Shown here one piece after another: positions 35,974 through 58,171 of a stretch of 64,000 bases of DNA; position 1 is the first letter of the stretch, and each line of letters begins with the position of its first letter. The DNA comes from a plasmid, in the NCBI RefSeq assembly GCF_053078305.1, contig NZ_CP166875.1. One strand, written 5' to 3'. The position numbers were made by a program, and so were the translations under genes. A model generated the notes under the pieces. That model was given only the letters and a program-made list of their open reading frames with translations, was not told the DNA's origin and did no database searches.

Positions 35974-36060
35974 TGATATTTCTGTGGCTATTGAGTTCTC
36001 ATTGAAATGCGATATTTAAAAGTATGAAGCATATTACATTATTAACTTATTTCTCTGTTA

Positions 36061-36459: not shown

Positions 36460-36530
36460 CGCCTTCGCGTTGCTCAGTTGTCCAACCCCGGGGACGGGAA
36501 AAAGCAAGTTTTCCCCGCCCCCGGCGTTTC
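36456..36530 (+). repeat. conserved ~72-bp structured element (copy 2)
   Basis: same flanks as 24178-24249 with a different but self-complementary stem. Confidence 0.6.
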
Positions 36531-36681
36531 TGTAGTGAAAAGCGGGAAATGGAGGGAATGGTCAGTAACAGGGAATGTGGTATTATCGCGGCGGGTGTCT
36601 GAGCCTTTCTGGTTCAGGCAAGACGCAGGTACTAGAAATGCGAAGACCCCACTTGTTAATCCATTAACTCGTGAGGCCTGC

Positions 36682-36888
36682 ATGAAGTACTTGAACACTA
36701 CTGATTGTAGCCTCTTCCTTGCAGAGAGGTCAAAGTTTATGACGAAATATGCCCTTATCGGGTTGCTCGCCGTGTGCGCCACGGTGTTGTGTTTTTCACT
36801 GATATTCAGGGAACGGTTATGTGAGCTGAATATTCACAGGGGAAATACAGTGGTGCAGGTAACTCTGGCCTACGAAGCACGGAAGTAA
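36682..36888 (+). CDS. srnB: SrnB/PndA-type Hok-family type I toxin
   Basis: MKYLNTTDCSLFLAERSKFMTKYALIGLLAVCATVLCFSLIFRERLCELNIHRGNTVVQVTLAYEARK matches remembered SrnB. Confidence 0.8.
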   Translation: MKYLNTTDCSLFLAERSKFMTKYALIGLLAVCATVLCFSLIFRERLCELNIHRGNTVVQVTLAYEARK

Positions 36889-37171
36889 GCTGCCGGGCGG
36901 GGACGGAAGTCCCCGCTTTCCGGAAGTGTGAGGTATTTCAGGGGCAGACACCCGACATGCCAGAAACCGCCGGTCCCGCCCGGGGCCGGCACACAGGTTA
37001 AGGCATTTCCTGTTTTTCAGCCATTTCGCAACAAAAATCACATTAAACAACAGTAATCACCGTTGATTTGTGCGCCAACACAGATCTTCGTCACAATTCT
37101 CAAGTCGCTGATTTCAAAAAACTGTAGTATCCTCTGCGAAACGATCCCTGTTTGAGAATTGAGGAGGCGAG

Positions 37172-37432
37172 ATGTCGCAGACAGAAAATGCAGTGACTTC
37201 CTCATTGAGTCAAAAGCGGTTTGTGCGCAGAGGTAAGCCTATGACTGACTCTGAGAAACAAATGGCCGCTGTTGCAAGAAAACGTCTTACACACAAAGAG
37301 ATAAAAGTTTTTGTCAAAAATCCTCTGAAAGATCTCATGGTTGAGTACTGCGAGAGAGAGGGGATAACACAGGCTCAGTTCGTTGAGAAAATCATCAAAG
37401 ATGAACTGCAGAGACTGGATATACTAAAGTAA
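37172..37432 (+). CDS. copB: CopB (RepA2) transcriptional repressor of repA
   Basis: 86 aa, matches IncFII CopB; position upstream of copA/repA1. Confidence 0.85.
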
Positions 37433-37494
37433 AGACTTTACTTTGTGGCGTAGCATGCTAGATTACTGATCGTTTAAGGAATTTTGTGGCTGGC

Positions 37495-37585
37495 CACGCC
37501 ATAAGGTGGCAGGGAACTGGTTCTGATGTGGATGTACAGGAGCCAGAAAAGTGAAAACCCCGATAATCTTCTTTAACTTTGGCGA
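37495..37585 (-). ncRNA. copA: CopA antisense RNA (approximate bounds)
   Basis: region between copB and tap matches remembered R100 copA target sequence; bounds estimated. Confidence 0.55.
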
Positions 37586-37656
37586 GTGAGAAAGATTACC
37601 GGGGCCATCTAAAAACCGTATAGCCAACAATTCAGCTATGCGGGGAGTATAGTTAT

Positions 37657-37731
37657 ATGCCCGGAAAAGTTCAAGACTTCTTTCTGTGCTCGCTCCTTCT
37701 GCGCATTGTAAGTGCAGGATGGTGTGACTGA
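37657..37731 (+). CDS. tap: Tap (RepA6) leader peptide
   Basis: 24-codon [27 protein letters not shown] ending just after repA1 GTG start. Confidence 0.6.
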
Positions 37732-38581
37732 TCTTCAACAAACGTATTACCGCCAGGTAAAGAACCCGAATCCGGTGTTTACACCCCGTAAAGGTGCCGG
37801 AACGCTGAAGTTCTGCGAAAAACTGATGGAAAAGGCGGTGGGCTTCACCTCCCGTTTTGATTTCGCCATTCATGTGGCGCATGCCCGTTCGCGTGGTCTG
37901 CGTCGACGCATGCCACCGGTGCTGCGTCGACGGGCTATTGATGCGCTGCTGCAGGGGCTGTGTTTCCATTATGACCCGCTGGCCAACCGCGTCCAGTGTT
38001 CCATTACCACACTGGCCATTGAGTGCGGACTGGCGACAGAGTCCGGTGCAGGAAAACTCTCCATCACCCGGGCCACCCGGGCCCTGACGTTCCTGTCAGA
38101 GCTGGGACTGATTACCTACCAGACGGAATATGATCCGCTTATCGGGTGCTACATTCCGACCGATATCACGTTCACACCGGCGCTGTTTGCCGCCCTTGAT
38201 GTGTCTGAGGATGCAGTGGCAGCTGCGCGCCGCAGCCGTGTGGTATGGGAAAACAGACAGCGCAAAAAGCAGGGGCTGGATACCCTGGGTATGGATGAGC
38301 TGATAGCGAAAGCCTGGCGTTTTGTCCGTGAGCGTTTCCGCAGTTACCAGACAGAGCTTAAGTCCCACGGCATGAAACGTGCCCGTGCGCGCCGCGATGC
38401 AGGCAGAACCCGCCAGGACATTGTCACCCTGGTGAAACGGCAGCTGACGCGTGAAATCGCGGAAGGGCGTTTCCGGGGAAGCCTGGAGGCCGTGAAGCGC
38501 GAAATCGACCGTCGTGTGAAGGAACGCATGATAATGTCGCGTAACAACAACTACACACGGCTGGCCACTGCCTCCCCCTGA
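37724..38581 (+). CDS. repA1: RepA1 IncFII replication initiator (GTG start)
   Basis: [22 protein letters not shown]... near-identical to remembered R100 RepA1. Confidence 0.9.
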
Positions 38582-38599
38582 GTTTTACCTCATCTGAAT

Positions 38600-38900
38600 A
38601 ATCCGGCCTGCGCCGGAGGCATCTGCACGCCTGAAGCCTGTCAGCGAACAAAAAAACAGCACCACATACAAAAAACAATCTCATCATCCCGCTTCTGGTG
38701 CATCCGGCCCCCCTGTTTTCGATACAAAACATGCCTCACTGACGGGGAATTTTGCTTATCCACATTTAACTGCAAGGGACTTCCCCATAAAGTTACAACC
38801 GTTCATGTCATAAAGCGCCAGCCGCCAGCCTTACAGGGTGCAATGTATCTTTTAAACACCTGTTTATATCTCCTTTAAACCACTTAACTACATTCATTTA
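38600..38900. promoter_or_regulatory. oriR-type origin region with DnaA box TTATCCACA at 38756-38764
   Basis: DnaA box and AT-rich stretch downstream of repA1 as in R1/R100. Confidence 0.6.
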
Positions 38901-39157
38901 AAAAGAAAACCTATTCACTGCCTGTCCTGTGGACAGACAGATATGCACCTCCCACCGCAAGCGGCGGGCCCCGACCGGAGCCACTTTAGTTACAACACTC
39001 AGATACAACCACCAGAAAAACCCAAGTCCCGCGCAGAACTGAAACCACAAAGCCCCTCCTCATAACTGAAAAGCGGCCCCGCCCCGGCCCAAAGGGCCGG
39101 AACAGAGTCGCTTTTAATTATGAATGTTGTAACTATACTCCATCATTGCTGTCAGTA

Positions 39158-39427
39158 TTCTGGCTGGAAGTCCTCAGTACACGCTCGTAAGCGGCCCTCA
39201 CGGCCCGCTAACGCGGAGATACGCCCCGACTTCGGGTAAACCCTCGTCGGGACCACTCCGACCGCGCACATAAGCTCTATCATAGCTGACAGCGGGTATG
39301 GCTTTGCAGGGTGGGGATGGGTAAGGTGAAATCTATCAATCAGTACCGGCTTACGCCGGGCTTCGGCGGTTTTACTCCGGTATCACATGTAACCACAGCG
39401 TGCCGCCTTACATGCGCTGACGCGCAT
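39158..39427. repeat. 270-bp GC-rich structured segment, copy A (IncFII ori-downstream type)
   Basis: ~90% identical direct repeat of 41040-41310. Confidence 0.7.
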
Positions 39428-39516
39428 AAACAACAAGTTGCTACATTAGCTTACAGGTTAATTCACCTTGCATAAGATTAGCATATAGGTTAATGTTTAT
39501 CGAAATGGGAGGTCAT

Positions 39517-39846
39517 ATGTTTAGCGTTGTTTATCACCCGGAAGCCAGGGAAGAAGCCACAGCATTACCCATAAAAATCAGGGTGAAGTTTGACCGTCTC
39601 ATCAGCAAACTGGAATATGACGCCCGATTACTGCGGGAACCGGATACAAAGCCCCTGGGGGATGGACTTTTTGAGATCCGCACGATGGGGACGGACATAG
39701 CCAGAGGCATCTGGGTATACCACAAAGGCAATACCATCATCATGCTCCGGGTTTTCATCAAGAAGTCTCAGAAAACGCCAGCAAAAGAAATCGATCTCGC
39801 CAAAAAGCGGTTAGCGGAGGTACTTAATGAAACTGGTAAGCCATAA
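39517..39846 (+). CDS. HigB/RelE-family toxin
   Basis: toxin-first order followed by overlapping HTH gene. Confidence 0.65.
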   Translation: MFSVVYHPEAREEATALPIKIRVKFDRLISKLEYDARLLREPDTKPLGDGLFEIRTMGTDIARGIWVYHKGNTIIMLRVFIKKSQKTPAKEIDLAKKRLAEVLNETGKP

Positions 39847-40108
39847 AGAACTGCATAACGAGTGGATGCAGGACGACGAATATCGCGCTGCATGGCAGGA
39901 AGAAGAACGTAAGGAGAAACTCAGGGAGTTGCTTGCAGAATGGCGTAAGCATGACAATTTGACAAAAGCGCAGGTTGCTGAACGCATGGGGGTTACTCCT
40001 CCTGTTATTTCCCGCCTGGAAAACAACATCACTAAAGCCAGCATCGACACCCTGACTCGCTATGCCCATGCGTGCGGTATCAAAAAACCTGTTATTACGC
40101 TGTACTGA
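39827..40108 (+). CDS. HigA-like HTH-XRE antitoxin
   Basis: 93 aa, HTH motif LTKAQVAERMGVTPPVISRLEN. Confidence 0.65.
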   Translation: MKLVSHKELHNEWMQDDEYRAAWQEEERKEKLRELLAEWRKHDNLTKAQVAERMGVTPPVISRLENNITKASIDTLTRYAHACGIKKPVITLY

Positions 40109-40296
40109 ACTCTGCTCTATGGCTGCCAGTTCTGGAGAAATCAGTAACTAAATTTTAATTAGCTACGTTATGGTAAATCTGCCTGATGTGTCGATTTCTC
40201 TGAAAGTAATTCGGCTTCTGTGGGCTGCGTTTGCCTTGTGCCACCTGAATGTAATCACTATGATTAAATATGATTAACAACTAATCGGATATACAA

Positions 40297-40575
40297 ATGA
40301 AAAACAATACCGCACAGGCAACAAAAGTAATTACCGCGCATGTGCCATTACCTATGGCTGATAAAGTCGACCAGATGGCCGCCAGACTGGAACGCTCCCG
40401 GGGCTGGGTTATCAAACAGGCACTTTCTGCATGGCTTGCCCAGGAGGAGGAGCGTAATCGCCTGACGCTGGAAGCCCTGGACGATGTGATATCCGGACAG
40501 ATTATCGACCATCAGGCTGTACAGGCCTGGGCAGACAGCCTCAGTACTGACAATCCGTTACCGGTTCCACGCTGA
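40297..40575 (+). CDS. ribbon-helix-helix antitoxin (ParD/CopG-like)
   Basis: 92 aa upstream of and coupled to ParE-like ORF. Confidence 0.6.
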   Translation: MKNNTAQATKVITAHVPLPMADKVDQMAARLERSRGWVIKQALSAWLAQEEERNRLTLEALDDVISGQIIDHQAVQAWADSLSTDNPLPVPR

Positions 40576-40850
40576 TGGAACTGAAGTGGACCAGTAAGGC
40601 GCTTTCTGATTTGGCGCGGTTATATGATTTTCTGGTGCTGGCCAGTAAACCTGCCGCCGCCAGAATGGTACAGTCCCTGATACAGGCACCGGTCATTCTG
40701 TTAACTCATCCACGTATGGGAGAACAGTTGTTTCAGTTTGAACCCAGGGAGGTCAGACGGATTTTTGCTGGCGAGTACGAAATCCGTTACGAACTTAATG
40801 GGCTGCGTTTGGGAAACGTACAATATTGTACGGTTGCGCTATTGCGGTAG
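40575..40850 (+). CDS. ParE/RelE-family toxin
   Basis: 91 aa, ATGA overlap with antitoxin. Confidence 0.6.
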   Translation: MELKWTSKALSDLARLYDFLVLASKPAAARMVQSLIQAPVILLTHPRMGEQLFQFEPREVRRIFAGEYEIRYELNGLRLGNVQYCTVALLR

Positions 40851-41039
40851 GGTGTACTCCAACGCTATACGGTATTTGGCAGACCTTTAGGGACATGAGA
40901 TAACCTAAATGCAATAAGAGAAAAGCAATAACTTAAAGGCGATAGCTGATCACGATGAATCAATCAGTTACTTATCCGCATCGATTAAAAAATGCTCCTA
41001 ACGTACAATAATTCCGTTTCCCAAACCGACCCCTCAGTG

Positions 41040-41310
41040 TTCTGGCTGGAAGTCCTCAGTACACGCTCGTAAGCGGCCCTGACGGCCCGCTAACGCGGAG
41101 ATACGCCCCGACTTCGGGTAAACCCTCGTCGGGACCACTCCGACCGCGCACAGAAGCTCTCTCATGGCTGAAAGCGGGTATGGCTTAACAGGGTGGGAAT
41201 GGGATAGGCGAAATCTATCAATCAGTACCGGCTTACGCCGGGCTTCGGCGGTTTTACTCCGGTATCACATGTAACCACAGCGTACCGCCTTCCATGCCGC
41301 TGGCGCGGCA
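41040..41310. repeat. 270-bp GC-rich structured segment, copy B
   Basis: direct repeat of 39158-39427. Confidence 0.7.
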
Positions 41311-41385
41311 TATCATGGTGACGATATCTGAATCGTTATATACTGTGTATATACGTGGTAATGACGAGGTGATAAATGGCACAGG

Positions 41386-41469
41386 TTAATATGAGTTTAA
41401 GAATCGACGCTGAACTGAAGGATGCTTTTATGGGGTCAGCCTGGAATTCGGAAAATAAACCACGTTAAG
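41386..41469 (+). pseudogene. truncated RHH antitoxin remnant (MAQVNMSLRIDAELKDAF...)
   Basis: 27-codon ORF with RelB/ParD-like N-terminus, no toxin partner. Confidence 0.4.
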
Positions 41470-41640
41470 ACTATTTTTTAGCCAAATGACTGTCAGGAAT
41501 CCGGACGGTCGGAACATTTCGTACAGCCTTTACGTTCAGTGAGTTAGCTGGCCTGGATGTAACCACTCGTTCAACTCAATTCTCTTAGCGTGGGAAAATT
41601 TCCGTTTTCCAAGCGGACCCCTAGAAGAAGGGAAGCGATA

Positions 41641-42057
41641 TCAAGCCCAGGGATTAATAATTGATACTCCGGTTAATTCAAAATCACCAACATTTCTGGT
41701 TACAACCGTCATCCCATGTACCAGCGCCGTTGCTGCGATCAATGCGTCTCGTTCACTGCGCCTGTCGGGAACATGTAAACGAGAACAACGTAATGCAACC
41801 GCAGTATCTACAGGAAGTATCTTATCAGAAAACGCTGGTAACACATGCTGATCCATCCAAGAACGTAGCATAATCCCTTGTCGCATATCTCGACGTTCAA
41901 CTTGTAATATTCCCTGTTCAAGTTCCATTATGGAAATAACAGAAATAAAGAAATCTGCCGCATCTGTATGCAATACCCATTTTGCAACATTATTATCTAT
42001 ACGTCCTGTCCGAGCCTTCCGTAGCTCAGAGATAACATTAGTATCAAGAATATACAC
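41641..42057 (-). CDS. vagD: VapC/VagD PIN-domain toxin
   Basis: 138 aa, MYILDTNVISE PIN motif. Confidence 0.85.
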   Translation of the reverse strand: MYILDTNVISELRKARTGRIDNNVAKWVLHTDAADFFISVISIMELEQGILQVERRDMRQGIMLRSWMDQHVLPAFSDKILPVDTAVALRCSRLHVPDRRSERDALIAATALVHGMTVVTRNVGDFELTGVSIINPWA

Positions 42058-42311
42058 TATAAAAACTCCGCAGGTTTTAAACTAACCGTAATACGAGGCG
42101 GTTCAAATTCAACTGCATCAGCATCGGGCATCGCCAGAATGTCAATGAGAGTTCGTCGTTGTTGCGTCAATTTTCGGTATTCTTCGATACTAAGAAGTAC
42201 ATGTGCGGTTTTACCCCGATCAGTAATAAATACTGGACCATAATTCGTGGCGCGTTTGGCTCGAGTTACATCTTGATTAAGTTCCCGACTGGATAGGGTT
42301 GTAATCTTCAT
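42057..42311 (-). CDS. vagC: VapB/VagC antitoxin
   Basis: MKITTLSSRELNQDV..., overlaps toxin start. Confidence 0.8.
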   Translation of the reverse strand: MKITTLSSRELNQDVTRAKRATNYGPVFITDRGKTAHVLLSIEEYRKLTQQRRTLIDILAMPDADAVEFEPPRITVSLKPAEFL

Positions 42312-42424
42312 GCTGTTGCCTTTTGATGTATATAGGTACGTTACTACATTGTAGGGCATGAAATAGTACAATGCAAGAAATGTACTTGATTAGGGGTAGT
42401 CTTCGCCGCTTGTTGCTGTCAGAT

Positions 42425-42458
42425 ATTAATGCTAATGTATGCATACATTAGCATTAAT
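42425..42458. promoter_or_regulatory. 34-bp perfect palindrome ATTAATGCTAATGTATGCATACATTAGCATTAAT
   Basis: perfect dyad in divergent intergenic region. Confidence 0.45.
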
Positions 42459-42470
42459 GAGGGATGATAT

Positions 42471-42884
42471 GTGAGAGACAAAACCAGGGAGGCCATGCGG
42501 TTTTTTTTAGGCGGCAGGTGTTACACGGCTGAAAACCTTGAAAAGGATTATCTGGCTGAAGTTGCTAATTACAGTGACGACCGCTGGGAAGCACCCCAAC
42601 GCGCCGCACGTCTGGCAGCTGCCGTAAAGCGTTACAAGACATCAGAAATGCTGCGCTTTATTTTTGCTACCACTGCCTACGATCCCGATCCAGATTTAAC
42701 CCCGCTGACTGTGAGACGTTTGTGCAAGGCATTGTTCGGCAGAACAGGAAGCCAGTGGCTGGTTGTTGAAGTTTTTGGGGAGAAGGGGCGTCAGCACCGC
42801 AGCGCGGACAGCAATCCGGAGATGGTGGAAAAAGGGGGTTCGCGCCCATTTCCTCTAAAAGTCTCACCTTGCTTAGGTAATTAA
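42471..42884 (+). pseudogene. hypothetical ORF whose 3' end runs into the Tn3-family left IR
   Basis: ORF C-terminus encoded by IR sequence at 42834-42884. Confidence 0.35.
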
Positions 42885-42890
42885 TTGAAT

Positions 42891-43472
42891 TTATTTATAA
42901 AACGTTGCAATTTTAGCATCATTTTTTATTGTTCTTTTTAACCTGAAGTACGTCGATCGAGAGATACCTGTTTTTTCTGTCACACTGCCCAGAGATTCTC
43001 CCTGTGATATAAGCTCCAACGCTGTAGGCGTTCGTGGATGCTTCTTCCTGCCAAATTTTACGCCTGCGGCAAGTGCCGCTATTCTTCCGTCGTTTGTCCG
43101 CTCCAGAATACGCTCACGTTCCGCTTCAGCTACAGCAGCAAGGATTTGGATAACCATTTTGCCCATTGTCCCTTCTGTACTGAGACCGTTCTCCAGGAAC
43201 CGGATGGCGATCCCCTTTTTGTAACAGCTATCAACCACACGAATCATGTCAGCAGTGTTACGCCCCAGTCGGTCCATTTTTGTACAGATGATTACGTCGT
43301 CTTTCTCTGCACGGGCCAACAACCGCTGTAGTCCTTCCCGTTCATCAGTTGCGCCAGTCATCATATCCGTAAAAATACGATCTTCCCGTACCCCGGCATT
43401 TTTTAGCTCCGAGATTTGATGTGTTAGCTTCTGATGACTGGTTGATACCCGTGCATACCCCAATAACGCCAT
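42891..43472 (-). CDS. tnpR: serine-recombinase resolvase TnpR
   Basis: MALLGYARVSTSHQ catalytic Ser motif, C-terminal HTH. Confidence 0.85.
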   Translation of the reverse strand: MALLGYARVSTSHQKLTHQISELKNAGVREDRIFTDMMTGATDEREGLQRLLARAEKDDVIICTKMDRLGRNTADMIRVVDSCYKKGIAIRFLENGLSTEGTMGKMVIQILAAVAEAERERILERTNDGRIAALAAGVKFGRKKHPRTPTALELISQGESLGSVTEKTGISRSTYFRLKRTIKNDAKIATFYK

Positions 43473-43484
43473 TTTTAGTCTCAC

Positions 43485-43628
43485 TTATCGTTTTTGACAC
43501 TGCATGGTATCATAATGTACAAAATACGATTTTTGAAACCTGCTTTTATGCTGTTTTAGACAGGTATCAGATATCTTAATATTTGATACTAGCCATATTT
43601 AACAAATATTTAGCATTTTGGTAAATGT
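43485..43628. promoter_or_regulatory. res site region between tnpR and tnpA
   Basis: divergent intergenic region with TGTC..GACA-type dyads. Confidence 0.5.
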
Positions 43629-46600
43629 ATGCAGAAGTACAAGAAAAGAATTAGTATATTAACAAAAAGTGAAATAAATGAATTATATCAAGTCCCCTCT
43701 TTTAATCCTGTTGAAAGGGATGAGTTTTTTTCGCTGGATATCAGCCTTAAAAGAGAAATTGATAAAATAATAAATATAGAAAGCAGGGTGTATCTGATAT
43801 TAATAACAGGGTATTTCAGATATAAACCTGTGATTCCTGAATTTACATTAAAAGACGTAAAAAGGGATGTGAAATATATTATCCAGACATATTATAAAAA
43901 CGAAAGTACTAATCTCAATTTAAACATACCTAAAAGTACAAAGTACCGCCTTGTTAAACGAATGCTTTCTACTCTAGGATTTGAACAACTCACCCCATCT
44001 ATAAAAAATGAGTTAAGTGAACGTCTGAATGATGTTGCTACTATATGTATGGAACCAAAATATATTTTTGATGAATTACTTGCTTTTTTAGGACAGCGGC
44101 GTATAGCTCTTCCTGGATACAGTACTGTCCAGAACCTCGTTTCAGATGCTTTAAACTTTGAAAGGAAAAGGACAATTAATATTTTGTCAAAGAGAATTTA
44201 TCCTGCCACTGCACAAAAGATTACATCCATCATCCATGATGATGGAATATTAAATTCCATCAGGGGATATAATTATAGCACGAGAGACTTCTCAGCATCA
44301 GAAATAGAAAATGAATTAAGAACTCACAATGTGATAAGTAGTATTTACTATGAAATAAAAGATATAATTAATTCATTAGGTATATCCCAGGGAAACATGG
44401 AGTACTATGCAACTATCGTAAAACACAGTACAACATTCAGACTTAAGCGACACCCTAAATGGCAAGGAATACTTTATTTGTGCTGCTACTTGTACTTCAG
44501 ATACAGAGAGATAAATGATAAAATAATCACAGCCTTCAGATATTTAGTAAAAAAACATAAAGACGCTTCAGTTTTGTTTGCAAAAGCTCGGGCAACAGAG
44601 GAAATAGATCTAATAAATAAAAAGCTTAAGTTTGCGAGTAAAATATTTAACTTCTTCGTTGATAGTAACATTGAAGACAGCATCCCTTTTGGATATGTTC
44701 GTGAAAAGGTTTTTTCACTTATATCGAAAGATGATATGCATCTTGTGAGTGAATTTTTTGACAAAAATAAAATCGATGTAATTGAATATCAATGGCAGTA
44801 TATTGACAGCCATCACCTTAAGATCGCCAATTCAATCCGAAAGCTTTTTCTGGCTATAGATATAGTATATGACAACGAGAAGTCTGTTATTGGCCAGCAA
44901 ATTACTGCTGCCAAGGATGATCTCAGAGGAAAAGGAAAGCTGGATGCTAAGGATCTGAGGGTAATTCATCCATCCGAGAAAAATTACATTGTAAAAGAAG
45001 GAGAAATTAACACTCAACGATTCGAATTTCATATGTACAGCAGGGTATCTAACCATCTGGAAAACGGTGTCTTTTATGCTGCGGAGAGTGAACAAAACAA
45101 GAGACTGGAAGATGATCTCATAGAACGAAGTTACTGGCATAAGAATAAATCGATTTTGATAGAGAAAACAGGCCTTGAACGACTTATCACACCAATAACG
45201 CAGACTCTTAATGAGCTGGAGAATACCTTTAGCGATAAACTGGCTCGTATAACCATTGGAATAAACTCAGATGCTAATGAGTTTGTGAAAAAACAACCAC
45301 ACTCCAACAGATTACAGTGGAGTCTGGCCAGTAAAAAATGGAAGACCAGCATCGATAATCCGATTTACAATCAGATAAAAAATATCGGAATAGTTGACGT
45401 AATGAAGTATGTAAACAATGAGACGAATTTTTTGTCTGTGTTTAATGCCATATCATCCAGGAAAAATAATCTTGAAGCTGACTATAATGACCTTCTTGCC
45501 TGTATATTTGGTAATGGCGCAAATTATGGTGTTCACAGAATGGCATCTGCATCAGACCGTAGTATTGGAATACTACGTGATGTGAATGACAAATTCATTC
45601 GTCCAGAAACAACAGGAATGGCCAACACAGTAATATCTGATGCAATTGCAAATCTTTCTGTATATAAATACTGGACGATAAATGAAGATTCTCCATTTGG
45701 AAGTGTTGATGGGCAGAAGCACACTTGCAGAATAAATACATTTAAAGCCCGTTATTCTGCCAAGTATTTCAGAAAGGGGAAAGGGGTTTCTGCGATGACA
45801 CTGGTATCTAATCATGTGCCATTATCAACTGTGGTAATTTCTCCAAATGAATATGAAGGTCATTTTGCATTTGACTTGTTATATAACAACACCAGTGAAA
45901 TACAACCAAAGTCATTAGCGACTGACAATCATGGTATAAACAACGTTAATTTTGCGATTCTTGACATTTTTGGCTATCAGTTTTCACCACGTTATGCAAA
46001 ATTCAAGAAAATATTTAATGAATTATTTGATGTTATACTGGAGAGTGATAAACTCATTATAAAACTTAAAAAACAATTTAACTTTAAGCTCATTGAACAT
46101 GAATGGGAAAACATCCAACATATTATTTGTTCTTTAAGCAGAAAAACAACCATTCAAAGTACGGTTGTTAAGAAGTTATCTAATACAAAGCGTAGCAACA
46201 AGACATTAGCAGCACTTCGGGAGTATGACCGAGTTATAAAATGCATATATGTCCTGGATTATGCTGACAATAAAACCTTAAGGCAATTTGTGCAACAAGC
46301 ACTGAACAGAGGTGAAGCTTATCATCAACTAAGAAGAGCAATAGCATCAGTAAATGGAAATCAATTTCGCGGTGGTAATGACTACCAAATAGATCAATGG
46401 AACGACTGTGCGAGGTTAATAGCTAATTGTGTAATCTATTATAATTCAGCAATATTATCCAGGCTGGTCGAGAAATTTGAAAAAGAAAATAATAAAAAAG
46501 CGATAGATGTTCTGGCTAACTTATCCCCAGTAGCATGGAGACACATTCTCCTTGGAGGGAATTATTCTTTTGAAGATCAAGTTGCGATCACAAATTTGGA

Positions 46601-46667
46601 CAGTCTTTTGGAGGGAGTAGACCCACTAAGTGATATCGGAGATATTGAGTCCGAATATGACGGTTAA
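43629..46667 (+). CDS. tnpA: Tn3-family transposase TnpA
   Basis: 1012 aa, AT-rich, typical size for the family. Confidence 0.9.
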   Translation: MQKYKKRISILTKSEINELYQVPSFNPVERDEFFSLDISLKREIDKIINIESRVYLILITGYFRYKPVIPEFTLKDVKRDVKYIIQTYYKNESTNLNLNIPKSTKYRLVKRMLSTLGFEQLTPSIKNELSERLNDVATICMEPKYIFDELLAFLGQRRIALPGYSTVQNLVSDALNFERKRTINILSKRIYPATAQKITSIIHDDGILNSIRGYNYSTRDFSASEIENELRTHNVISSIYYEIKDIINSLGISQGNMEYYATIVKHSTTFRLKRHPKWQGILYLCCYLYFRYREINDKIITAFRYLVKKHKDASVLFAKARATEEIDLINKKLKFASKIFNFFVDSNIEDSIPFGYVREKVFSLISKDDMHLVSEFFDKNKIDVIEYQWQYIDSHHLKIANSIRKLFLAIDIVYDNEKSVIGQQITAAKDDLRGKGKLDAKDLRVIHPSEKNYIVKEGEINTQRFEFHMYSRVSNHLENGVFYAAESEQNKRLEDDLIERSYWHKNKSILIEKTGLERLITPITQTLNELENTFSDKLARITIGINSDANEFVKKQPHSNRLQWSLASKKWKTSIDNPIYNQIKNIGIVDVMKYVNNETNFLSVFNAISSRKNNLEADYNDLLACIFGNGANYGVHRMASASDRSIGILRDVNDKFIRPETTGMANTVISDAIANLSVYKYWTINEDSPFGSVDGQKHTCRINTFKARYSAKYFRKGKGVSAMTLVSNHVPLSTVVISPNEYEGHFAFDLLYNNTSEIQPKSLATDNHGINNVNFAILDIFGYQFSPRYAKFKKIFNELFDVILESDKLIIKLKKQFNFKLIEHEWENIQHIICSLSRKTTIQSTVVKKLSNTKRSNKTLAALREYDRVIKCIYVLDYADNKTLRQFVQQALNRGEAYHQLRRAIASVNGNQFRGGNDYQIDQWNDCARLIANCVIYYNSAILSRLVEKFEKENNKKAIDVLANLSPVAWRHILLGGNYSFEDQVAITNLDSLLEGVDPLSDIGDIESEYDG

Positions 46668-46733
46668 CAACATGATAAATAATGGTTTTTATGCTAAGAG
46701 TGAGACTTTTGGAGGAAATGGGCGCAGAACCCC

Positions 46734-46957
46734 TGTATCTGCCGTTCGGTTTTTGCACGAAGTTTTTCTGAGCTTTTACCGAACTGCATACGTTGCAGTT
46801 TCGCAACCAGCGCCTTCAGCCGGTTGATTTCGGAAGCATAAGCCGCCACCCGCTGTGAGAGCAGGCGGTTGTATTCAGCCATCTGGCGGATGGTGTCCTG
46901 TTGCGTCTGCAACAGTGCCCGCAGGCGGGCGTTCTCATGAGCAAGTGAGGTGTCCAT
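46734..46957 (-). pseudogene. IS66-family TnpC N-terminal fragment truncated by Tn3-family insertion
   Basis: leucine-zipper N-terminus MDTSLAHENARLRALL...; ORF ends at Tn IR. Confidence 0.7.
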
Positions 46958-46976
46958 ATCCTCACTTTACAACGGG

Positions 46977-47324
46977 TTATATGCGGATTCCAGCGCGTTC
47001 CGTTCGTTTCGGGTGCTTCCAGTTGATACCTTCAAGAAGCATGGATAACTGAGCCGGAGTAAGGTGCACCTTGCCGTCACGGGTGACTGGCCAGACGAAG
47101 CGGCCCCGCTCCAGGCGTTTGGTGAAGAGGCACAGTCCGTCACTGTCAGCCCACAACACTTTTATCTGGTCACCCCGGCGTCCGCGGAAGATGAACAGGT
47201 GTCCGGAGAACGGGTCATCCTTCAGGACGTTCTGAACTTTTGATGCCAGGCCGTTAAAGCCATTTCGCATATCGGTGATACCTGCAACCAGCCAGATACG
47301 CGAACCTGCAGGGAGAGATATCAT
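46977..47324 (-). CDS. IS66-family TnpB (orf2)
   Basis: 115 aa, typical IS66 orf2 size and sequence. Confidence 0.8.
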   Translation of the reverse strand: MISLPAGSRIWLVAGITDMRNGFNGLASKVQNVLKDDPFSGHLFIFRGRRGDQIKVLWADSDGLCLFTKRLERGRFVWPVTRDGKVHLTPAQLSMLLEGINWKHPKRTERAGIRI

Positions 47325-48001
47325 CAGTGGCTGCTCCCTTTTATTTCGCGGATAAGTGTCTGTAATAACGCCGGCGTCAGTTTACCTTTAAGCCTGAGAG
47401 TTCCGGCCGGCAGAACCAGCTCACAACACAGACTGTCGGACGGTGTATTTATCTGCTCTGGTTCCTGTGCGGGGGCCGGGATTTTATTATCCGGCTCCGG
47501 CGTTAACGTCACGGGAAGCAGTGCCGGCATATTTTTTCCGGAAGGCAGCAGGCCACCTTTCCGGTATTGATGGCGCCAGTTGAAGAGCAGGTTATCGTTG
47601 ATTCCGTTTTCCCGGGCGATCTGCGCCACACAGGCTCCGGGCTGCAGTGACTGCTCCACTAAGGCGATTTTAAACTCATAAGGGAAGTTGGGCCGCCGGG
47701 GACGTTTTTTTACCACGGGGGCTTCGGATATAACGGTGCTTTCAGGACGTACGACTGGTACCGTGGAAAATTGTCCGTAAAGGCAGGCATCAAGTTCCTG
47801 CTCCGACATGCCTGCGGGCAAAGGCCACGAAAGGCCAGCTCTCCGAAAGCGCACGAACATACTACAAACTGTTGATTTTGGTACACCCAGGCGACGCCCG
47901 GCCACAACCCGGGGTAAATGTTCTTCAAAGTGAAGACGTAAAGCTTCAGTGATCCAGGTCCGGTGTTTCATACGATAGTGTCCATTAAAAATGATGGACA
48001 T
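47324..48001 (-). CDS. IS66-family TnpA (orf1)
   Basis: contains KRPRRPNFPYEFKIALVEQSL...LLFNWRHQYR HTH region; start uncertain. Confidence 0.7.
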   Translation of the reverse strand: MSIIFNGHYRMKHRTWITEALRLHFEEHLPRVVAGRRLGVPKSTVCSMFVRFRRAGLSWPLPAGMSEQELDACLYGQFSTVPVVRPESTVISEAPVVKKRPRRPNFPYEFKIALVEQSLQPGACVAQIARENGINDNLLFNWRHQYRKGGLLPSGKNMPALLPVTLTPEPDNKIPAPAQEPEQINTPSDSLCCELVLPAGTLRLKGKLTPALLQTLIREIKGSSH

Positions 48002-48329
48002 TATTTTTGTAGAGCCGGAGGAAACAGACCAGACGGTTTAAATGAGCCGGTTACAAACAAATTCGCTTCATAAATTTCATAGTGCAGACCACATCCCCAA
48101 TGAGCCTGCTTTTCCAGCCTGCTGATCACCACATCAGCCCGGATAACATCAAAGGGATTGCGGGAATGAATATTACGAATAAAGCCATCGGTACGTGCTG
48201 CTGACATATTTCTGCCCATCTTTAATACACCTCTGTTTTTTGCCCCCATCATCTGTTGAGTTTCGGGAGCCGCGGTTTTGACGTTTTGCGGGGACCTGCC
48301 TTTTGTTCCCTCCGGTATTCACCATCACC

Positions 48330-48720
48330 TGTTTGAGAACCTTCGCCGCAAGGGGCATCACTGCCACGGCCGGAAACGACTGTCCGGGGGCAGACCGCAA
48401 AAGTTTTTGCCTGCTTTTGGGCAAAAAGTTTTGCGGGATGTGCATTTCACCCCTGGACTGGCGGAGACGGTTGTGGCTGTCTTTGCCCCCGGCGACAGGG
48501 GCTTAAACAGGTGTATGGCACCGGACACAACAACGGGCAGGGACCCGCCGCAACGACGAAGAGCGCGTGCGCGAAACGGCGTTGCCCCTTACATCCCGGC
48601 GGCCTTTTGCCGGGATGCCAGGAGCGCAGGCCACGGCGCGACAGAGGCGGCGCGACCGGAACGGTCGCTGCAAGCCCGGGGTTTCGCGTCAGGGATGGAA
48701 GCCCGCCAGGGCGGAGACAG
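48330..48720. promoter_or_regulatory. GC-rich hairpin repeat, copy 1 (candidate Frpo/ssi-type single-strand element)
   Basis: homologous to 53740-54010; core GAGCGCAGGCCACGGCGCGACA.AGGCGGCGCGACCG...CGGTCGCTGCAAGCCCGG. Confidence 0.5.
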
Positions 48721-49078
48721 CTTCGCTGGCTCCGTTCACGACAGCCCGCCCCGCCTGGGGGACGCCCGGAAAAGGCATAAGCAGGAGAACAACAAAACAG
48801 ACAATAATCAGGGCAGCAGTAATCAGAGTCAGAACAGGAGGAAAAAGAGAATAATCAAAGGGAAGGTGATGTGATTTCCGACAGGTCATAAACAGAGAAG
48901 GCGGGGGAAAAGAACGGGCGCCGCAGGCGCGCGTTCATCCCCGTTCCCGGAGGGAATCGGCCTTCCTGGCAGTCTGGTTGTTCATGCTGCTGCAATGTCA
49001 GCAAGGAGAAAGGGGCCACCGGCGAACCAGCAGCCCCTTTATAAAGGCGCTTCAGTGCAGTCAGACCAGCATCAGCCC

Positions 49079-49104
49079 TGAAAAGGCGGGCCTGCGCCCG
49101 CCTC
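49079..49104 (-). terminator. rho-independent terminator of hok transcript
   Basis: GGCGGGCGCAGGCCCGCC hairpin followed by T-tract on - strand. Confidence 0.6.
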
Positions 49105-49111
49105 CAGGTTG

Positions 49112-49270
49112 CTACTTACCGGATTCGTAAGCCATGAAAGCCGCCACCTCCCTGTATCCGTCTCTGTAACGAATCTCGCACAGCGATTTTCGTGTCAGAT
49201 AAGTAAATATCAACAGTGTGAGACACACAATCAACACACACCAGACAAGAGAGCTGCGTGGTAGTTTCAT
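49112..49270 (-). CDS. hok: Hok host-killing type I toxin; overlapping mok frame extends to 49411
   Basis: [52 protein letters not shown]. Confidence 0.85.
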
Positions 49271-49544
49271 GGCCTTCTTCTCCTTGCGCAAAGCGCGGTA
49301 AGAGGCTATCCTGATGTTGTCAGACATATGGGATGCCTCGTGGGTTAATGAAAAATTAACTACGGGGCTATCTTCTTTCTGCCACACAACACGGTAACAA
49401 ACCACCTTCACGTCATGAGGCAGAAAGCCTCAAGCGCCGGGCACATCATAGCCCATATACCTGCACGCTGACCACACTCACTTTTCCTGAAAATAACCCG
49501 CTCATTCAGGCTGTTTACGGGTAATCTGTGTGATTGTTGCCGCA

Positions 49545-50264
49545 TCACGCCGCCTCCCGGAGTTTGTTCGGCACCATCCACCGCTCCATCTCACGGACAG
49601 CGTGACCCGCCTCCCTTGCTGCCATACCTGCCTCTGCGATGACCTGCCAGAATGGCATATCCTGCCACTGCCAGCGTTCCATCCCGGCCAGTGACGGAAA
49701 ACGCTCACCCCACTGCCAGAACAGGGTTTCCAGGTCATGCTCTGCCACCCGGTCACTCCAGCGTGCATACCAGCTTCCGACTGTTTCCGGTGAATGGAAC
49801 GCCAGTTCGATTTCAGCCTGAGCGACCAGCGTCTGGTACGCACGGGCTTTCTGCTCTGCCTCCCGTGCCTGCTGGCGGCTGTACTTCTGCATGACCAGCA
49901 CGGATTTATGGCGACTGCGTTCCCTGACACGGAACCGCACCGACGGGAACAACCGCTCTGCTGCATCACCGGGAAGGGGAAGGAGGCAGACCTCGCCCTG
50001 TGTTTCAATCAGCACATCGACGGCATACAGCCACTGAGAACGGTTGCCGCGCAGTTCTTCTGCGGTCAGGGACGGCATGAAAAATCGCAGGTCAGACAGC
50101 GAAATCCTGCGGCTTCCGTTCAGACAGCGGAAAAACGCCCCCGCATACGGATATTCCGCCAGCGTGTTACCCTGGTGGCGGCGTTTTTCTGTCTCCGCCA
50201 CCGCCCGCCATGCGGCCTGTTGCTCTGTGCTGAGAGGAACCAGTGCCTGTGAACGTGCGCTCAT
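49545..50264 (-). CDS. psiA: PsiA plasmid SOS-inhibition protein
   Basis: 239 aa matching remembered F PsiA. Confidence 0.9.
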
Positions 50265-50695
50265 GCCTGACCTCCTTCCGCCATCAGGATATGGATGATG
50301 TCACTGACGCTGTATCCCTGTTCATCCAGTGATGCCGCCAGTGCCAGTGAATGGCTGACAGCTTCCGGTGCAAACCGCCGCTGCACCTGAACCACCGCAA
50401 ACGGCTCACCACCGGCATTCACCAGAACCAGCACCCAGACCTGAGAGACATCGCCCGGTGAACATAACGCCAGGTGAAAACGTTCGTGGGCAGGCGTGAA
50501 ACGGACCTGGACGGGGAAAAAGCCGCCGAACTCGCTGCCGTACTCGCCATTCATCGTCCAGTTGTCCGGCGCATCCAGTTCCCGCATCACGGCGTGTGTC
50601 AGCTCACGGCGTTCATCACTTCCGGCAGCCCGGATATCTTCATATTCCTGTGCGCTCATGGTCTGTAATACATTCAGGGTCAGTTCAGTTTTCAT
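50261..50695 (-). CDS. psiB: PsiB RecA inhibitor
   Basis: [66 protein letters not shown] matches F PsiB. Confidence 0.9.
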
Positions 50696-50749
50696 CACGG
50701 TATCTCCCTTGCTGCCGCCCCGTCTCCGGCGGGGCGGTGTGGTTGTTCA

Positions 50750-52708
50750 TCAGGCGGCATCAGCCAGGTTATCGGCGCGTTCAGTGGCATCCGTCTGTGG
50801 ACGTGGTGAACCCATCCAGCCAGGCACCCAGCGGTTGTCTTTCATGTGGAACTCTGCATGTTCAGCGGCATCGCCTTTCTTCATCTTCTCCGCGTCCCGT
50901 GCGGCACCGGACAGTCCGGCATCATTCAGGGCATCGATAATCTGCGGCTTTTTCAGGTGACCGAAGAAGTTTGCTTTTGTCGGCTGCCACCAGTCACGCA
51001 TGTGAAAGCCGATGGCGCTCTCCAGCGAGTCCAGCGGACTGCGTGACGTGTGACCATACTCGCGGGTCTGAACGCCGTGGATGCTGCACGCGGTGCAGAA
51101 ACTGAGCAGTGATAACAGCACGTCCTGGCTGAGTGACAGGAACGTCGTCATGTCCCGTGCCCATCCCTCCGGTAACAGGGCAGCAAGACGGGCTTTTTCT
51201 GCCATCATCGCCATGAATGCGGCACCGTCCTTCCCCGATGGCGCATCGCTGGTCAGCGAATAATGTTTACATTCCAGGCTGATTTGTGCTGGTTTACTGT
51301 ACGCTCCGCTGCCAAACACATTCAGGCAGAGCGTCCATGCCAGCAGTGCCAGAGATTTGTCCGGTTGCTGCATGAGTGCCGCCTGGACTGCCAGCGTGCG
51401 TTCGGAAGACATTTTCGTCAGCAGTGGCAGACTGATTTCCTCCACTGACGCTTTCTCCTGCACCTGTTCCGTGCGGTCAGCGTCGTCAGTCACGTCATCT
51501 TCACTGCGCAACTGCACACCACGCTGGACACACACATTACCGTAACGCCAGGACACCACCACGCCACTTCCGGCACGCATCTCCGGCGTCCACGCCCTGA
51601 CCTTCGCCATGCAGTCAATCAGCTTCATTTCTGCTGCCAGCAGGTCAGATTCCTCACACTGGTTTTCCAGCGCGTCGTAACGCATCATCAGTTCGTTCAG
51701 GCGTTCTTCTTCTGCCTCCGTCAGCACCGCTTCCGGCTCCGGCAGGTTGCGGTATGCCCGGGAATCTTCACGGCACTCACCGACAGGCTCCATGCGTCCG
51801 GCGCACCATTCCCAGCCTTCGGCTTCCCGAAGGTGTTCAGCGACAGCCTGGAGTTTTTCCAGCAGGGCGGCATCGAGCGCCACGCAGTCCACATAGCCAC
51901 CCTCGTCATCGCTGAACAAATCAGTACGCAGTTCGTCAGGTGAGAAAGCATCAGCCCCCACGAAGCGGAATTTAGTGTTGTCCTTCACCGCCACTTCACT
52001 TTCCGTAATCAGATTGCGGATAACCCGCACATCCGGTTTACCGCCCCATCCTGACTGGCAGGCCGCTTCAAACACCTGCACCTGACGCGCGGTGTCGTTC
52101 TCCAGCGCCAGCGCCTGACAGTGCTCGGTGGTGATGCGGTCTTCTGCCAGCGCATCGAGGATGACAGGCGCAAGGTCTGCCAGTTTCAGCATTCGCTGAA
52201 CGTGGCGGGGCGAATAACCCAGCAAATCACCGATTTGTGCAGGTGTTTTGCCTTCCTGCGCCATTGCACGGAATCCGGCAATCTGTTCGGCAGGGTGCAT
52301 ATCCCGACGATGACCGTTCTCGGTCATCGATGCGGCAGTCGCCAGCTCCTGCGGAATGACCTTCACACGGACAGGCCAGTCAACCTGAATGATGTCACGC
52401 TCTGCCAGCATGTTGAGTGCTGCCAGTCGGCGACCACCTGCGGCGACACCGTAACGGTCACCTGGCAGGGCATGAACAACCAGATTCTGTAACAGGCCGA
52501 CACCTTTAATGGAGTCCGCCAGTTCGCTGACGGACTCCGCAGAATACGGCACCGTGCGCACATTCAGCGGAGACTTAATCAGCGAGGCCAGCGGCACGCT
52601 CACTTCCTCCGTCTGCGCCAGCAGGGCCGACAGGACTGTTTCCTGCGTTTTTGCAGGTTTACGGCTGGATTTACGCTCCGTTTTTGCCTTAGACTCTGTA
52701 ACTGACAT
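50750..52708 (-). CDS. ParB-like nuclease domain protein of leading region
   Basis: ~652 aa with N-terminal ParB/Srx fold motif; position between ssb and psiB as in F. Confidence 0.8.
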   Translation of the reverse strand: MSVTESKAKTERKSSRKPAKTQETVLSALLAQTEEVSVPLASLIKSPLNVRTVPYSAESVSELADSIKGVGLLQNLVVHALPGDRYGVAAGGRRLAALNMLAERDIIQVDWPVRVKVIPQELATAASMTENGHRRDMHPAEQIAGFRAMAQEGKTPAQIGDLLGYSPRHVQRMLKLADLAPVILDALAEDRITTEHCQALALENDTARQVQVFEAACQSGWGGKPDVRVIRNLITESEVAVKDNTKFRFVGADAFSPDELRTDLFSDDEGGYVDCVALDAALLEKLQAVAEHLREAEGWEWCAGRMEPVGECREDSRAYRNLPEPEAVLTEAEEERLNELMMRYDALENQCEESDLLAAEMKLIDCMAKVRAWTPEMRAGSGVVVSWRYGNVCVQRGVQLRSEDDVTDDADRTEQVQEKASVEEISLPLLTKMSSERTLAVQAALMQQPDKSLALLAWTLCLNVFGSGAYSKPAQISLECKHYSLTSDAPSGKDGAAFMAMMAEKARLAALLPEGWARDMTTFLSLSQDVLLSLLSFCTACSIHGVQTREYGHTSRSPLDSLESAIGFHMRDWWQPTKANFFGHLKKPQIIDALNDAGLSGAARDAEKMKKGDAAEHAEFHMKDNRWVPGWMGSPRPQTDATERADNLADAA

Positions 52709-52773
52709 AGTTAGTACCTCCCAAAACGGTAATAATGATTGTCTGCCGGACGCGTTCCCGTCCGGCACCTCTC

Positions 52774-53049
<276 letters not shown>

Positions 53050-53064
53050 TCACAGTCAGGCCAG

Positions 53065-53592
53065 TCAGAACGGGATATCGTCTGAAAATCCGTAATCCTC
53101 CCCCTCCGGCGGCTGAGGCTGAGGCTCGGGCTGCGCGGCCTTACGTCCACGGCCTTTCGTTTTCGCGCCACTTTTTTTCGTCGCGTCAGCACTCTGTGGC
53201 TGCCCATTCTGCTGAGGCTGCGGTTGTGCCTGAGCGTTCTGCTGTGGTGCAATCCCCAGCATCTGCATGGTGCCCGTGGTCTTAACAAGAATTTCAGTGA
53301 CGTAACGGGTGATACCGTTATCTTCCCAGCTACGGGTTCGGAGTTGCCCCTCGATATAGACCTGCGCGCCCTTGCGCAGATATTCACCAGCCACTTCCGC
53401 GAGCTTGCCGAACAGCACCACGCGGTGCCATTCCGTCTGCTCCCGCATCTCCCCCGTCTTTTTGTCGCGCCAGCTTTCTGATGTGGCCACCTGCAGGTTT
53501 GCCACTGCGCCCCCGTTGGGGATGTAACGGACCTCCGGATCATTGCCCAGACGCCCGACGAGGATGACCTTGTTGATACCACGTGCACTCAT
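53065..53592 (-). CDS. ssb: plasmid single-stranded DNA-binding protein
   Basis: [25 protein letters not shown]-fold; acidic C-terminal tail DDIPF. Confidence 0.9.
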
Positions 53593-57104: not shown

Positions 57105-57788
57105 TTACGCAGCCTCCGGCATAAACCAGTCATCATTTGCGGCCCCCTGCTGCATGGCCCGCTGTACGGCAGCCAGACGTTGCTGTCCGGCACGGTGATA
57201 CTGCTCAAGCAGCTCGATACCGATATACCGGCGTCCGGACTGGAGGGCGGCGACGCAGGTTGAGCCGCTGCCTGCAAACGGGTCCAGCACAATCGCGTTC
57301 GGATGTGTGAAGCTCTCAATCAGTGGTTGCAGGCTGGTAACGGGCTTTTCCGTCGGGTGATGGCGGTTGCCCGAATATTTCCAGCCCAGCACATCCGGCA
57401 GCGGGTTACGGGGCCGGGCCGGACTGCCCTTTGCCAGGATGTAAGCGCATTCGTGGCGGTACGCGACATACACAGATTTGGATGTGTAGTTTTTGGTGAA
57501 GACCAGGTGCCCAACCACGCTGAATCCGGCGCGTTTCCAGGCCGCCATAAAGCGGTCAATACGGTGCCAGCCGTAGAAGCTGACCATCAGCGCGTCTTTT
57601 TTGAGTACGCGGTACATCTCATTGCTGGCAGGTTGCAGCCAGTCATCATTAACGTCACCGGCAATGGTGCGCCCGGAACGGTCACGGAAACCGACGAGAT
57701 ATGGCGGATCGGTTAATATGAAATCAATGGCGTTATCAGGAATCGTGGCCATAACACGCACGCAGTCACCCAGGATAAAACGGGACAT
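57105..57788 (-). CDS. orphan N6-adenine DNA methyltransferase
   Basis: DPPY catalytic motif, FAGSGSTCVAA AdoMet-binding motif, no adjacent restriction enzyme. Confidence 0.8.
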   Translation of the reverse strand: MSRFILGDCVRVMATIPDNAIDFILTDPPYLVGFRDRSGRTIAGDVNDDWLQPASNEMYRVLKKDALMVSFYGWHRIDRFMAAWKRAGFSVVGHLVFTKNYTSKSVYVAYRHECAYILAKGSPARPRNPLPDVLGWKYSGNRHHPTEKPVTSLQPLIESFTHPNAIVLDPFAGSGSTCVAALQSGRRYIGIELLEQYHRAGQQRLAAVQRAMQQGAANDDWFMPEAA

Positions 57789-58171
57789 AACAGCTCCTTC
57801 TCTTACAGAGGGCACCGGGAGGGCACCCCTGTGGTGCCCGTTCCCCGCTGCCTGTGGGCTGTACACCGCGTCCGGTAACGGGTCAGGCCGACCGTGGAAT
57901 ACCGCAGCCGTCGTCTTTTTGACGGCAAGGTTATGCCGCGAAAGCGGCTTGAAGGGCGTTCATCAGAAAAGGGCGACGGGCTGGCGTACACTGTCACCGA
58001 CGCCAGCCGGGAGCGGTAAAAGCGCCCGTCCCGTGCCCGGCCGGACGCGGGACACTGACCACAGGCAGCGTTTATGCCGCGCCGCATCAGCCGGCGCAGT
58101 AAAAAGAGGAGCACAGCGACATCCTTTACCGGAAAAGAAACGGGCGGTTGCCCGCCCGTCTCCGTCATACT

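Follow-up and report, generated by a model that had tools for sequence, protein, structure and literature searches.

On this F-like plasmid the distal part of the leading region, from ssb to hok, ends at an insertion sequence that is itself cut short at a Tn3-family transposon, in the place where F carries its oriT-proximal leading genes. A preliminary description, made from the DNA letters and open reading frames, had taken the segment at 46734-48062 for a truncated IS66-family element and had left two fates for those genes, namely that they were lost or that they were displaced. Here we ask what the insertion sequence is, how it came to be cut, and which of the two fates fits the surrounding plasmid. 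The window, i.e. the whole stretch of DNA that was analysed, comprises 64,000 nucleotides (64 kb) of contig NZ_CP166875.1, and all positions refer to it.

Based on comparison with intact copies, the insertion sequence was identified as ISCro1. The remnant, its genes and the gene into which it was inserted are as follows.

46734-48054, minus strand: remnant of ISCro1 (IS66 family), 1,321 bp, from the tnpA-side terminal repeat to tnpC codon 75, 100% identical to intact copies.
48033-48054, minus strand: tnpA-side terminal inverted repeat of ISCro1, GTAACCGGCTCATTTAAACCGT on the minus strand, with the ends taken from three intact copies.
47324-48001, minus strand: ISCro1 tnpA (orf1), 225 aa, intact, identical to the annotated TnpA of pF95-3 (Pfam HTH_Tnp_1, E 8.6e-15).
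46977-47324, minus strand: ISCro1 tnpB (orf2), 115 aa, intact, identical to the annotated TnpB of pF95-3 (Pfam TnpB_IS66, E 4.7e-40).
46694-46957, minus strand: truncated tnpC, 75 of 523 native codons, then 12 read-through codons and a stop within the transposon inverted repeat.
48055-48219, minus strand: leading-region gene cut by ISCro1, first 55 of 107 codons, 100% identical to pF95-3, where the gene is intact.

The alignment to the intact ISCro1 copies of pF95-3 and pEC-10 showed 100% identity over 1,323 bp and ran from 46732/46734 to 48054, the bases 46732-46733 being common to ISCro1 and the transposon inverted repeat. In PLSDB, 1,019 records covered at least 80% of the ISCro1 segment, under the annotation 'IS66-like element ISCro1 family'. 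Judged from these alignments the match is far above chance expectation, and the earlier assignment to the IS66 family holds. ISCro1 was first listed in Citrobacter rodentium ICC168 (PMC3072379) and has been called a member of the IS66 family (PMC8764528).

The ends of the element were set from three intact copies with 8-bp target duplications (AAACAAAC, GGATATCT and TATTCACC), which gave a full length of 2,699 bp; intact ISCro1 terminates with ...GAGCCGGTTAC. On this basis the tnpA-side terminus (GTAAC...) is position 48054. The preliminary description had placed the right end 8 bp too far, at 48062: positions 48055-48062 (AAACAAAT) are the sole surviving copy of the 8-bp ISCro1 target and lie outside the insertion sequence. 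The remnant retains 1,321 bp, the tnpA-side 49%, and about 1,378 bp are gone, including the tnpC-side end. A search for that other end found no further ISCro1 DNA in the whole 64-kb window; the tnpC-side terminal repeat is absent throughout, and of the two terminal repeats of an IS66 element one is left.

TnpA and TnpB agree with the proteins of the intact pF95-3 ISCro1 in every residue, and their order, tnpA (HTH) and tnpB (TnpB_IS66) upstream of tnpC, is that of the IS66 accessory genes. Comparison of the translation with full-length TnpC placed the truncation after 75 of 523 codons, at the Tn3-family inverted repeat. The earlier reading of orf1 and orf2 as intact and of orf3 as stopping after about 75 codons was thus correct. 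Pfam detected in the truncated TnpC the LZ_Tnp_IS66 N-terminal domain only, and none of the DDE catalytic domain of an IS66 transposase is left in the remnant. With the second terminal repeat lost, and also the DDE domain and zinc-finger part of TnpC, this copy cannot move alone; the segment is an immobile remnant of an IS66-family member, and the tnpC fragment is to be annotated as a pseudogene.

The left neighbour of the remnant is a cryptic Tn3-family transposon, which on its own left side abuts another interrupted gene.

42834-46733, plus strand: cryptic Tn3-family element, 3,900 bp, 36.3% G+C, bounded by terminal inverted repeats, a hybrid copy without target duplication.
42891-43472, minus strand: tnpR, serine resolvase, 193 aa (Pfam Resolvase, E 5e-38).
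43629-46667, plus strand: tnpA, Tn3-family DDE transposase, 1,012 aa (Pfam DDE_Tnp_Tn3, E 5.3e-117, and DUF4158).
42561-42833, plus strand: hypothetical gene downstream of IncFII repA, cut, first 91 of 130 codons as aligned to the intact gene in pSTEC639_5.

The spacer between tnpR and tnpA occupies 43473-43628, and tnpR is annotated as a recombinase in p2RM9973 and in the pFHI_NMBU_11 plasmids. Two marks of the Tn3 family were found, the large DDE_Tnp_Tn3 transposase and terminal repeats of about 38 bp starting with GGGG; the repeats are imperfect and form 40-nt arms, 85% complementary, at 42828-42867 and 46700-46739. A few plasmids of E. coli, E. albertii and Salmonella carry copies of the transposon at 99.4-100% identity. 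Additionally, the exact transposase was recorded in 594 blocks of a large assembly collection, 290 of them on 2-5 kb contigs only, the pattern expected when a repeat is present in many copies. AT-rich duplications of 5 bp are found on both sides of nine other copies (TATTA, AACAT, AAAGA, GAATA, TATCT, AGATA, TATTT, TTATT and GTATA), and because of these duplications the ends of the transposon could be fixed at 42834 and 46733. The copy in the window has the left flank AAAAA and the right flank TGTAT, which are mismatched and are both AT-rich like genuine targets. No 5-bp target duplication, the mark of a simple insertion, is present around it, and since its two flanks differ, this copy is not a simple insertion. 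A transposon copy with two unrelated flanks is the textbook mark of a rearrangement through the element, and the hybrid copy described here flags such a structural rearrangement.

Both flanks of the transposon are cut genes, and neither remainder is present in the window. On the left, the repA-side gene is cut by the left inverted repeat of the transposon, and the 3' part of this 130-aa gene is absent from the window. The remainder of orf3 was likewise said not to continue across the transposon, and this was confirmed, the opposite flank being the different cut gene near repA. The stretch 33629-46733, with finO, repA, the cut gene and the transposon in full, recurs at 100.000% identity in a 104.8-kb contig of GCA_000736735.1, which departs from the window precisely at the right inverted repeat. 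Past this repeat it resumes the same small gene from the equivalent of window 42708, with a 126-bp duplication that contains one SNP, and its transposon copy is likewise a hybrid without target duplication. Because the left junction is 100% identical in this contig and the divergence begins only at the right repeat, the left junction is shared and older; the two sequences indicate that right-hand flanks have been swapped at this transposon within the lineage. In contig JAGUIY010000020.1 a seeming breakpoint at 42833 was rejected as a mere alignment end, the gene being intact there.

The rearrangement becomes visible in the orientation of the larger blocks on the two sides of the transposon and the ISCro1 remnant.

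1-38581, plus strand: F-type tra operon from traK (partial) to traX, then finO and IncFII repA, from open reading frames and relatives.
33853-34410, plus strand: finO.
37712-38581, plus strand: IncFII repA.
48231-48788, minus strand: Frpo1-type repeat, matching the F repeat between hok and ygeA, 89% identical to both F repeats.
49112-53592, minus strand: distal leading block, from open reading frames and 95.5% identity to F 58.6-64.0 kb.
49112-49270, minus strand: hok.
49545-50264, minus strand: psiA.
50261-50698, minus strand: psiB.
50750-52768, minus strand: parB-like gene.
53065-53592, minus strand: ssb.

The window begins within traK, with TraK residues 109-242 at window 3-404 (tblastn), and the tra operon looks intact from there to traX. 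Contig DAZFSQ010000019.1 matches the plus strand of window 1-11394 at 99.965% identity, and window 29996-39428 matches pSTEC639_5, a carrier of traX, finO and repA. The segment of F from 58.6 to 64.0 kb aligned to window 53583-48231 in reverse orientation, with 95.5% identity over 5.4 kb, and PsiA is 100% identical to that of relatives. The order in F is ssb, parB-like gene, psiB, psiA, hok, Frpo1 repeat, ygeA (95 aa), DUF932, SLT, traM and traJ, on one strand except for SLT, which is on the opposite one. The preliminary description was therefore right that the oriT-proximal leading genes of F lie beyond hok, as ygeA, DUF932, SLT, oriT and traM are found there. Frpo1 has been placed upstream of ygeA/ygeB and Frpo2 upstream of ssb (PMC9849209).

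The one-strand arrangement of F was found in all ten contigs with an identical TraB and in all ten with an identical PsiA. The window has the ssb-to-hok block on one strand and tra, finO and repA on the other; F and 20 of 20 relatives have all of them on a single strand. Accordingly, the tra part of the closest relative matches the plus strand of the window and its psi block the minus strand. The block in the window has the gene content and the gene order of an F-like leading region, with neither the same-strand arrangement nor the adjacency to oriT.

The genes that should follow were searched for with tblastn, and DUF932, SLT, TraM, TraJ, TraY, TraA, TraL, TraE and two small leading ORFs of the closest relative gave no match in the window. 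The relatives that are 99.97-100% identical at the tra start of the window carry traE...traM-oriT-SLT-DUF932 directly upstream; in contigs DAZFSQ010000019.1 and DBHFEZ010000024.1 the order leading away from the traK 5' end is traE, traL, traA, traY, traJ, traM, oriT, SLT and DUF932. Because the window starts in traK and relatives carry them there, we place the missing genes to the left of the window; oriT, traM-traE, SLT and DUF932 most likely lie just off its left edge.

The opposed strands, together with the mismatched transposon flanks, argue for a displacement, via inversion or fusion, and against a deletion, since a deletion keeps the relative orientation of the retained parts and cannot give this layout. 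Of 'lost or displaced', the second part is favoured over the first by the orientation against 20 of 20 relatives and by the missing target duplication.

Our preferred reading, which we hold to be probable, is that the segment between the two junction sites was inverted through the transposon. ISCro1 would have inserted at AAACAAAT in the 107-aa gene beyond the Frpo1-type repeat, facing oriT; the cut after codon 55 is seen by comparison with pF95-3. The Tn3-family element, already present in the repA-side gene, would have made a genuine second junction at TGTAT in tnpC, after codon 75. A single event could account for this, namely replicative transposition within one molecule in the inverting orientation; alternatively, a second insertion could have come first and homologous (RecA) recombination between the inverted copies afterwards. 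Either route would yield two inverted transposon copies, on each of which an old flank is paired with a new one, and the copy in the window would be a hybrid of the older repA-side junction at its left end and the tnpC junction at its right end. Tn3-family elements cause inversions and deletions by intramolecular replicative transposition. Inverted res sites are no substrate of Tn3-family resolvases, so that the inverted product would persist.

The inversion makes definite predictions for the remainder of the plasmid. The reciprocal region, probably just left of the window, should contain the 3' 1.38 kb of ISCro1, the remaining part of the small gene, a ygeA-like gene, DUF932, SLT, oriT and traM-traE. 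Beside it a second transposon copy is predicted, inverted, with its other end abutting the 3' part of the repA-side gene. One junction would read ...GCTGATTCGCTCCTGTGCTTCCTGTAT followed directly by GGGGGTTCGCGCCCATTTCC..., joining the 3' part of tnpC to a left-type inverted repeat with TGTAT repeated. The other would read ...GGGCGCAGAACCCC followed directly by AAAAAATGGCTGCCAGATATCG..., joining a right-type inverted repeat to the 3' part of the repA-side gene. The predicted reciprocal junction had no match in RefSeq complete E. coli, GTDB representative genomes or JGI metagenomes, which counts against the inversion. Similarly, the window's own transposon/tnpC junction had no match in these three collections or in PLSDB, and exact-protein searches with the 87-aa TnpC fusion ORF and with two versions of the ISCro1-interrupted small ORF gave no matches.

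The psi block is 93-98% identical to that of relatives, and in none of them are the tra part and the leading block both nearly identical to those of the window, which speaks against the inversion in so far as it leaves room for two parental plasmids. A fusion of replicons via the transposon, i.e. a cointegrate of two F-like plasmids with two directly repeated copies, would give the same hybrid-flank signature with any relative orientation of the parts. It could have arisen by replicative transposition from a tra/IncFII plasmid into the tnpC of an ISCro1 within the other plasmid's leading region, or by recombination of two copies; the window would then be one junction, with the oriT-proximal genes of the other plasmid at the second. 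The contig of GCA_000736735.1 joins the same left junction to another backbone via a homologous gene, which resembles a two-plasmid exchange. The leading block is 98% identical to the closest tra relatives as against 99.97% for the tra part; however, F-like leading regions are mosaic in general, so that this difference is weak evidence. A fusion would also need two tra and two leading regions, whereas the 64-kb window has one of each. Directly repeated copies of a Tn3-family element are expected to be resolved, and with a tnpR that appears intact the two copies of such a cointegrate should have been. We therefore consider a fusion unlikely, while keeping it as the chief alternative to the inversion.

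We judged it improbable that the junction is an artefact of assembly, i.e. a mis-join via the 3.9-kb repeat that combined the flanks of two copies, each of them in truth simply inserted and flanked by a 5-bp duplication of its own. Many genomes have several copies of the element, as the 290 of 594 blocks on 2-5 kb contigs suggest, an otherwise 100% identical contig leaves the same transposon by a different exit, and the junction in the window is unique across all collections searched. However, the leading and tra/rep blocks must join somewhere and the window offers no other path, and the contig of the relative is also a hybrid without target duplication, so that real exchanges do occur at this element; direct signs of an assembly error were absent. 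Simple loss, in which the transposon or an adjacent deletion took the 3' part of ISCro1, ygeA, DUF932, SLT, oriT and sequence beyond, agrees with the absence of all of these from the window and with the adjacent deletions that intramolecular transposition of Tn3-family elements can in general produce, but it is very improbable, since a simple deletion by the transposon is ruled out by the leading block being inverted relative to tra/rep in comparison with F and the 20 relatives, and the tra operon, which appears whole between traK and traX, is 99.97-100% identical to relatives with traM, oriT and SLT directly upstream.

The site of the ISCro1 insertion was compared with other plasmids. In the window the insertion sequence interrupts a small gene, 177 bp downstream of the Frpo1-type repeat, and points to oriT. 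Intact copies were found between hok/Frpo1 and DUF932 in pF95-3 (NZ_OY754457), pESBL3171-IncF (NZ_MW390526) and pEC-10 (NZ_CP065204), with the target duplications GGATATCT, TGAATACC and TATTCACC, respectively. These insertions are independent, because each plasmid has its own intact 8-bp duplication, and for the same reason a derivation of the position in the window from the pF95-3 insertion via an adjacent deletion was discarded as unneeded. We also considered an orientation preference of ISCro1 downstream of Frpo1, a single-strand promoter, with the consequence that the transposase genes would be switched on once the element entered a recipient. ISCro1 faces oriT in three PLSDB plasmids and in the window, and 12 records, with several spacings, have the opposite orientation, on which the idea was rejected. 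The region downstream of Frpo1 is simply a recurrent landing zone of ISCro1, with no orientation bias.

The direct importance of the locus, a further scar of nested mobile elements in an F-like plasmid, is small. In practical terms, leading-region genes are not to be assumed next to oriT in this replicon. It is possible, although we regard it as doubtful, that this is a single, still-conjugative plasmid with an inversion, in which the leading region is split. In that case the oriT-proximal part (the ygeA-like gene, DUF932 and SLT) would still enter the recipient first, and the Frpo2-ssb-psiB-psiA-hok-Frpo1 block would arrive late and as the non-template strand, so that it would not be expressible from single-stranded DNA. 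Such a plasmid would offer a natural variant in which to test the weight that early anti-SOS and SSB expression carries in the wild. If the inversion is real and the plasmid transfers, it would bear on recent work on the expression of leading genes from single-stranded DNA. Leading-region genes are reported to be so arranged that the incoming single strand can be transcribed, and in experiments with an anti-CRISPR placed in F both position and strand made a difference (PMC11541004). Deletion of Frpo2 from F led to no significant change in conjugation efficiency, and deletion of Frpo1 or ygeA lowered it (PMC9849209).

In comparison with known systems, nothing here is a new kind of element, and what is seen is ordinary mobile-element biology that is already known. 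The transposon resembles passenger-free Tn3-family transposons with tnpR and tnpA, in its DDE_Tnp_Tn3 transposase, its divergent serine resolvase and its GGGG repeats of about 34-38 bp. The annotations retrieved give it no ISfinder-type name and say only 'Tn3 family transposase'. The ISCro1 remnant is like intact ISCro1 in its 100% nucleotide identity over 1,321 bp, its repeat starting with GTAAC and its order tnpA-tnpB-tnpC, and unlike it in having no DDE transposase domain, no TnpC zinc-finger part and no second terminal repeat. The ISCro1 copies of pF95-3, pESBL3171-IncF and pEC-10 have the same orientation and lie within about 0.5 kb of the site in the window; unlike in the window, the insertion sequence is complete in these plasmids and is followed by DUF932, SLT, traM and tra as normal. 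In F (NC_002483) the leading region runs Frpo2-ssb-yfjA-yfjB(parB-like)-psiB-psiA-flm/hok-Frpo1-ygeA-ygeB(DUF932)-orf169(SLT)-oriT. In contrast to F, the leading block of the window is opposed to the tra strand and ends at ISCro1, 177 bp beyond the Frpo1-type repeat, without ygeA, DUF932, SLT and oriT, whereas within window 48231-53583 the gene order is the same as in F.

Over 13.1 kb (33629-46733 in the window) the sequence was 100.000% identical to the public contig L027 (GCA_000736735.1, JPQG01000009.1; positions 1-13500), and the identity ran through the final base of the Tn3-family element. Past the transposon, L027 resumes in the same small gene downstream of the IncFII repA, at the equivalent of window position 42708, so that the gene carries a 126-bp duplication across the transposon with one SNP between the copies. 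The L027 transposon is a second hybrid copy without target duplication, so the Tn3-family element serves IncFII-type plasmids as a hub for recombination.

A copy 99.97% identical to the element was observed in plasmid pFHI_NMBU_11_01 (NZ_CP045713.1; 6003-9902), where it adjoins an IncFII repA region in reverse orientation. Its flanks, ATTAA on the left and AATTA on the right, also lack a target duplication, and this arrangement may represent another rearrangement through the element. Additionally, derivatives of about 636 bp that kept both ends and part of tnpR (PLSDB matches H119-H125) were found in several E. coli plasmids, including those of O104:H4 strains (e.g. NC_018666.1). These resemble non-autonomous copies of the element with internal deletions.

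Several independent ISCro1 insertions were found in F-like leading regions, in a zone of approximately 0.5 kb in the vicinity of the Frpo1-type repeat and of the first gene downstream, in the window and in three comparison sequences (L003, L039 and L004):

Window 48055-48800, ISCro1 insertion zone
L003 8324-8600, ISCro1 insertion zone
L039 6201-6260, ISCro1 insertion zone
L004 7087-7102/9794-9801, ISCro1 insertion zone

This zone is a recurrent ISCro1 target. No orientation bias was detected among the best 5,000 PLSDB matches, with ISCro1 pointing towards oriT in 3 records and in the opposite direction in 12.

Two direct repeats were identified in the window:

39152-39428 and 41034-41312, 279 bp, 93.9% identical, toxin-antitoxin region downstream of the IncFII repA
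9497-9624 and 11416-11543, 128 bp, 94.5% identical, after traU

The former suggests that modules of the toxin-antitoxin region are duplicated or mosaic. The latter flanks about 1.8 kb on both sides, and relatives carry a short additional TraU-like ORF at this site; the 1.8 kb is therefore probably an insertion inside the tra operon with the traU 3' end duplicated.

Past the leading block, on its ssb side, the following genes were located:

Within 57105-61446, DNA methyltransferase (NF010253, E 4e-146)
Within 57105-61446, umuD/umuC-like polymerase V pair (E 8e-42 and 7e-238)

Together, they are typical extended leading-region cargo.
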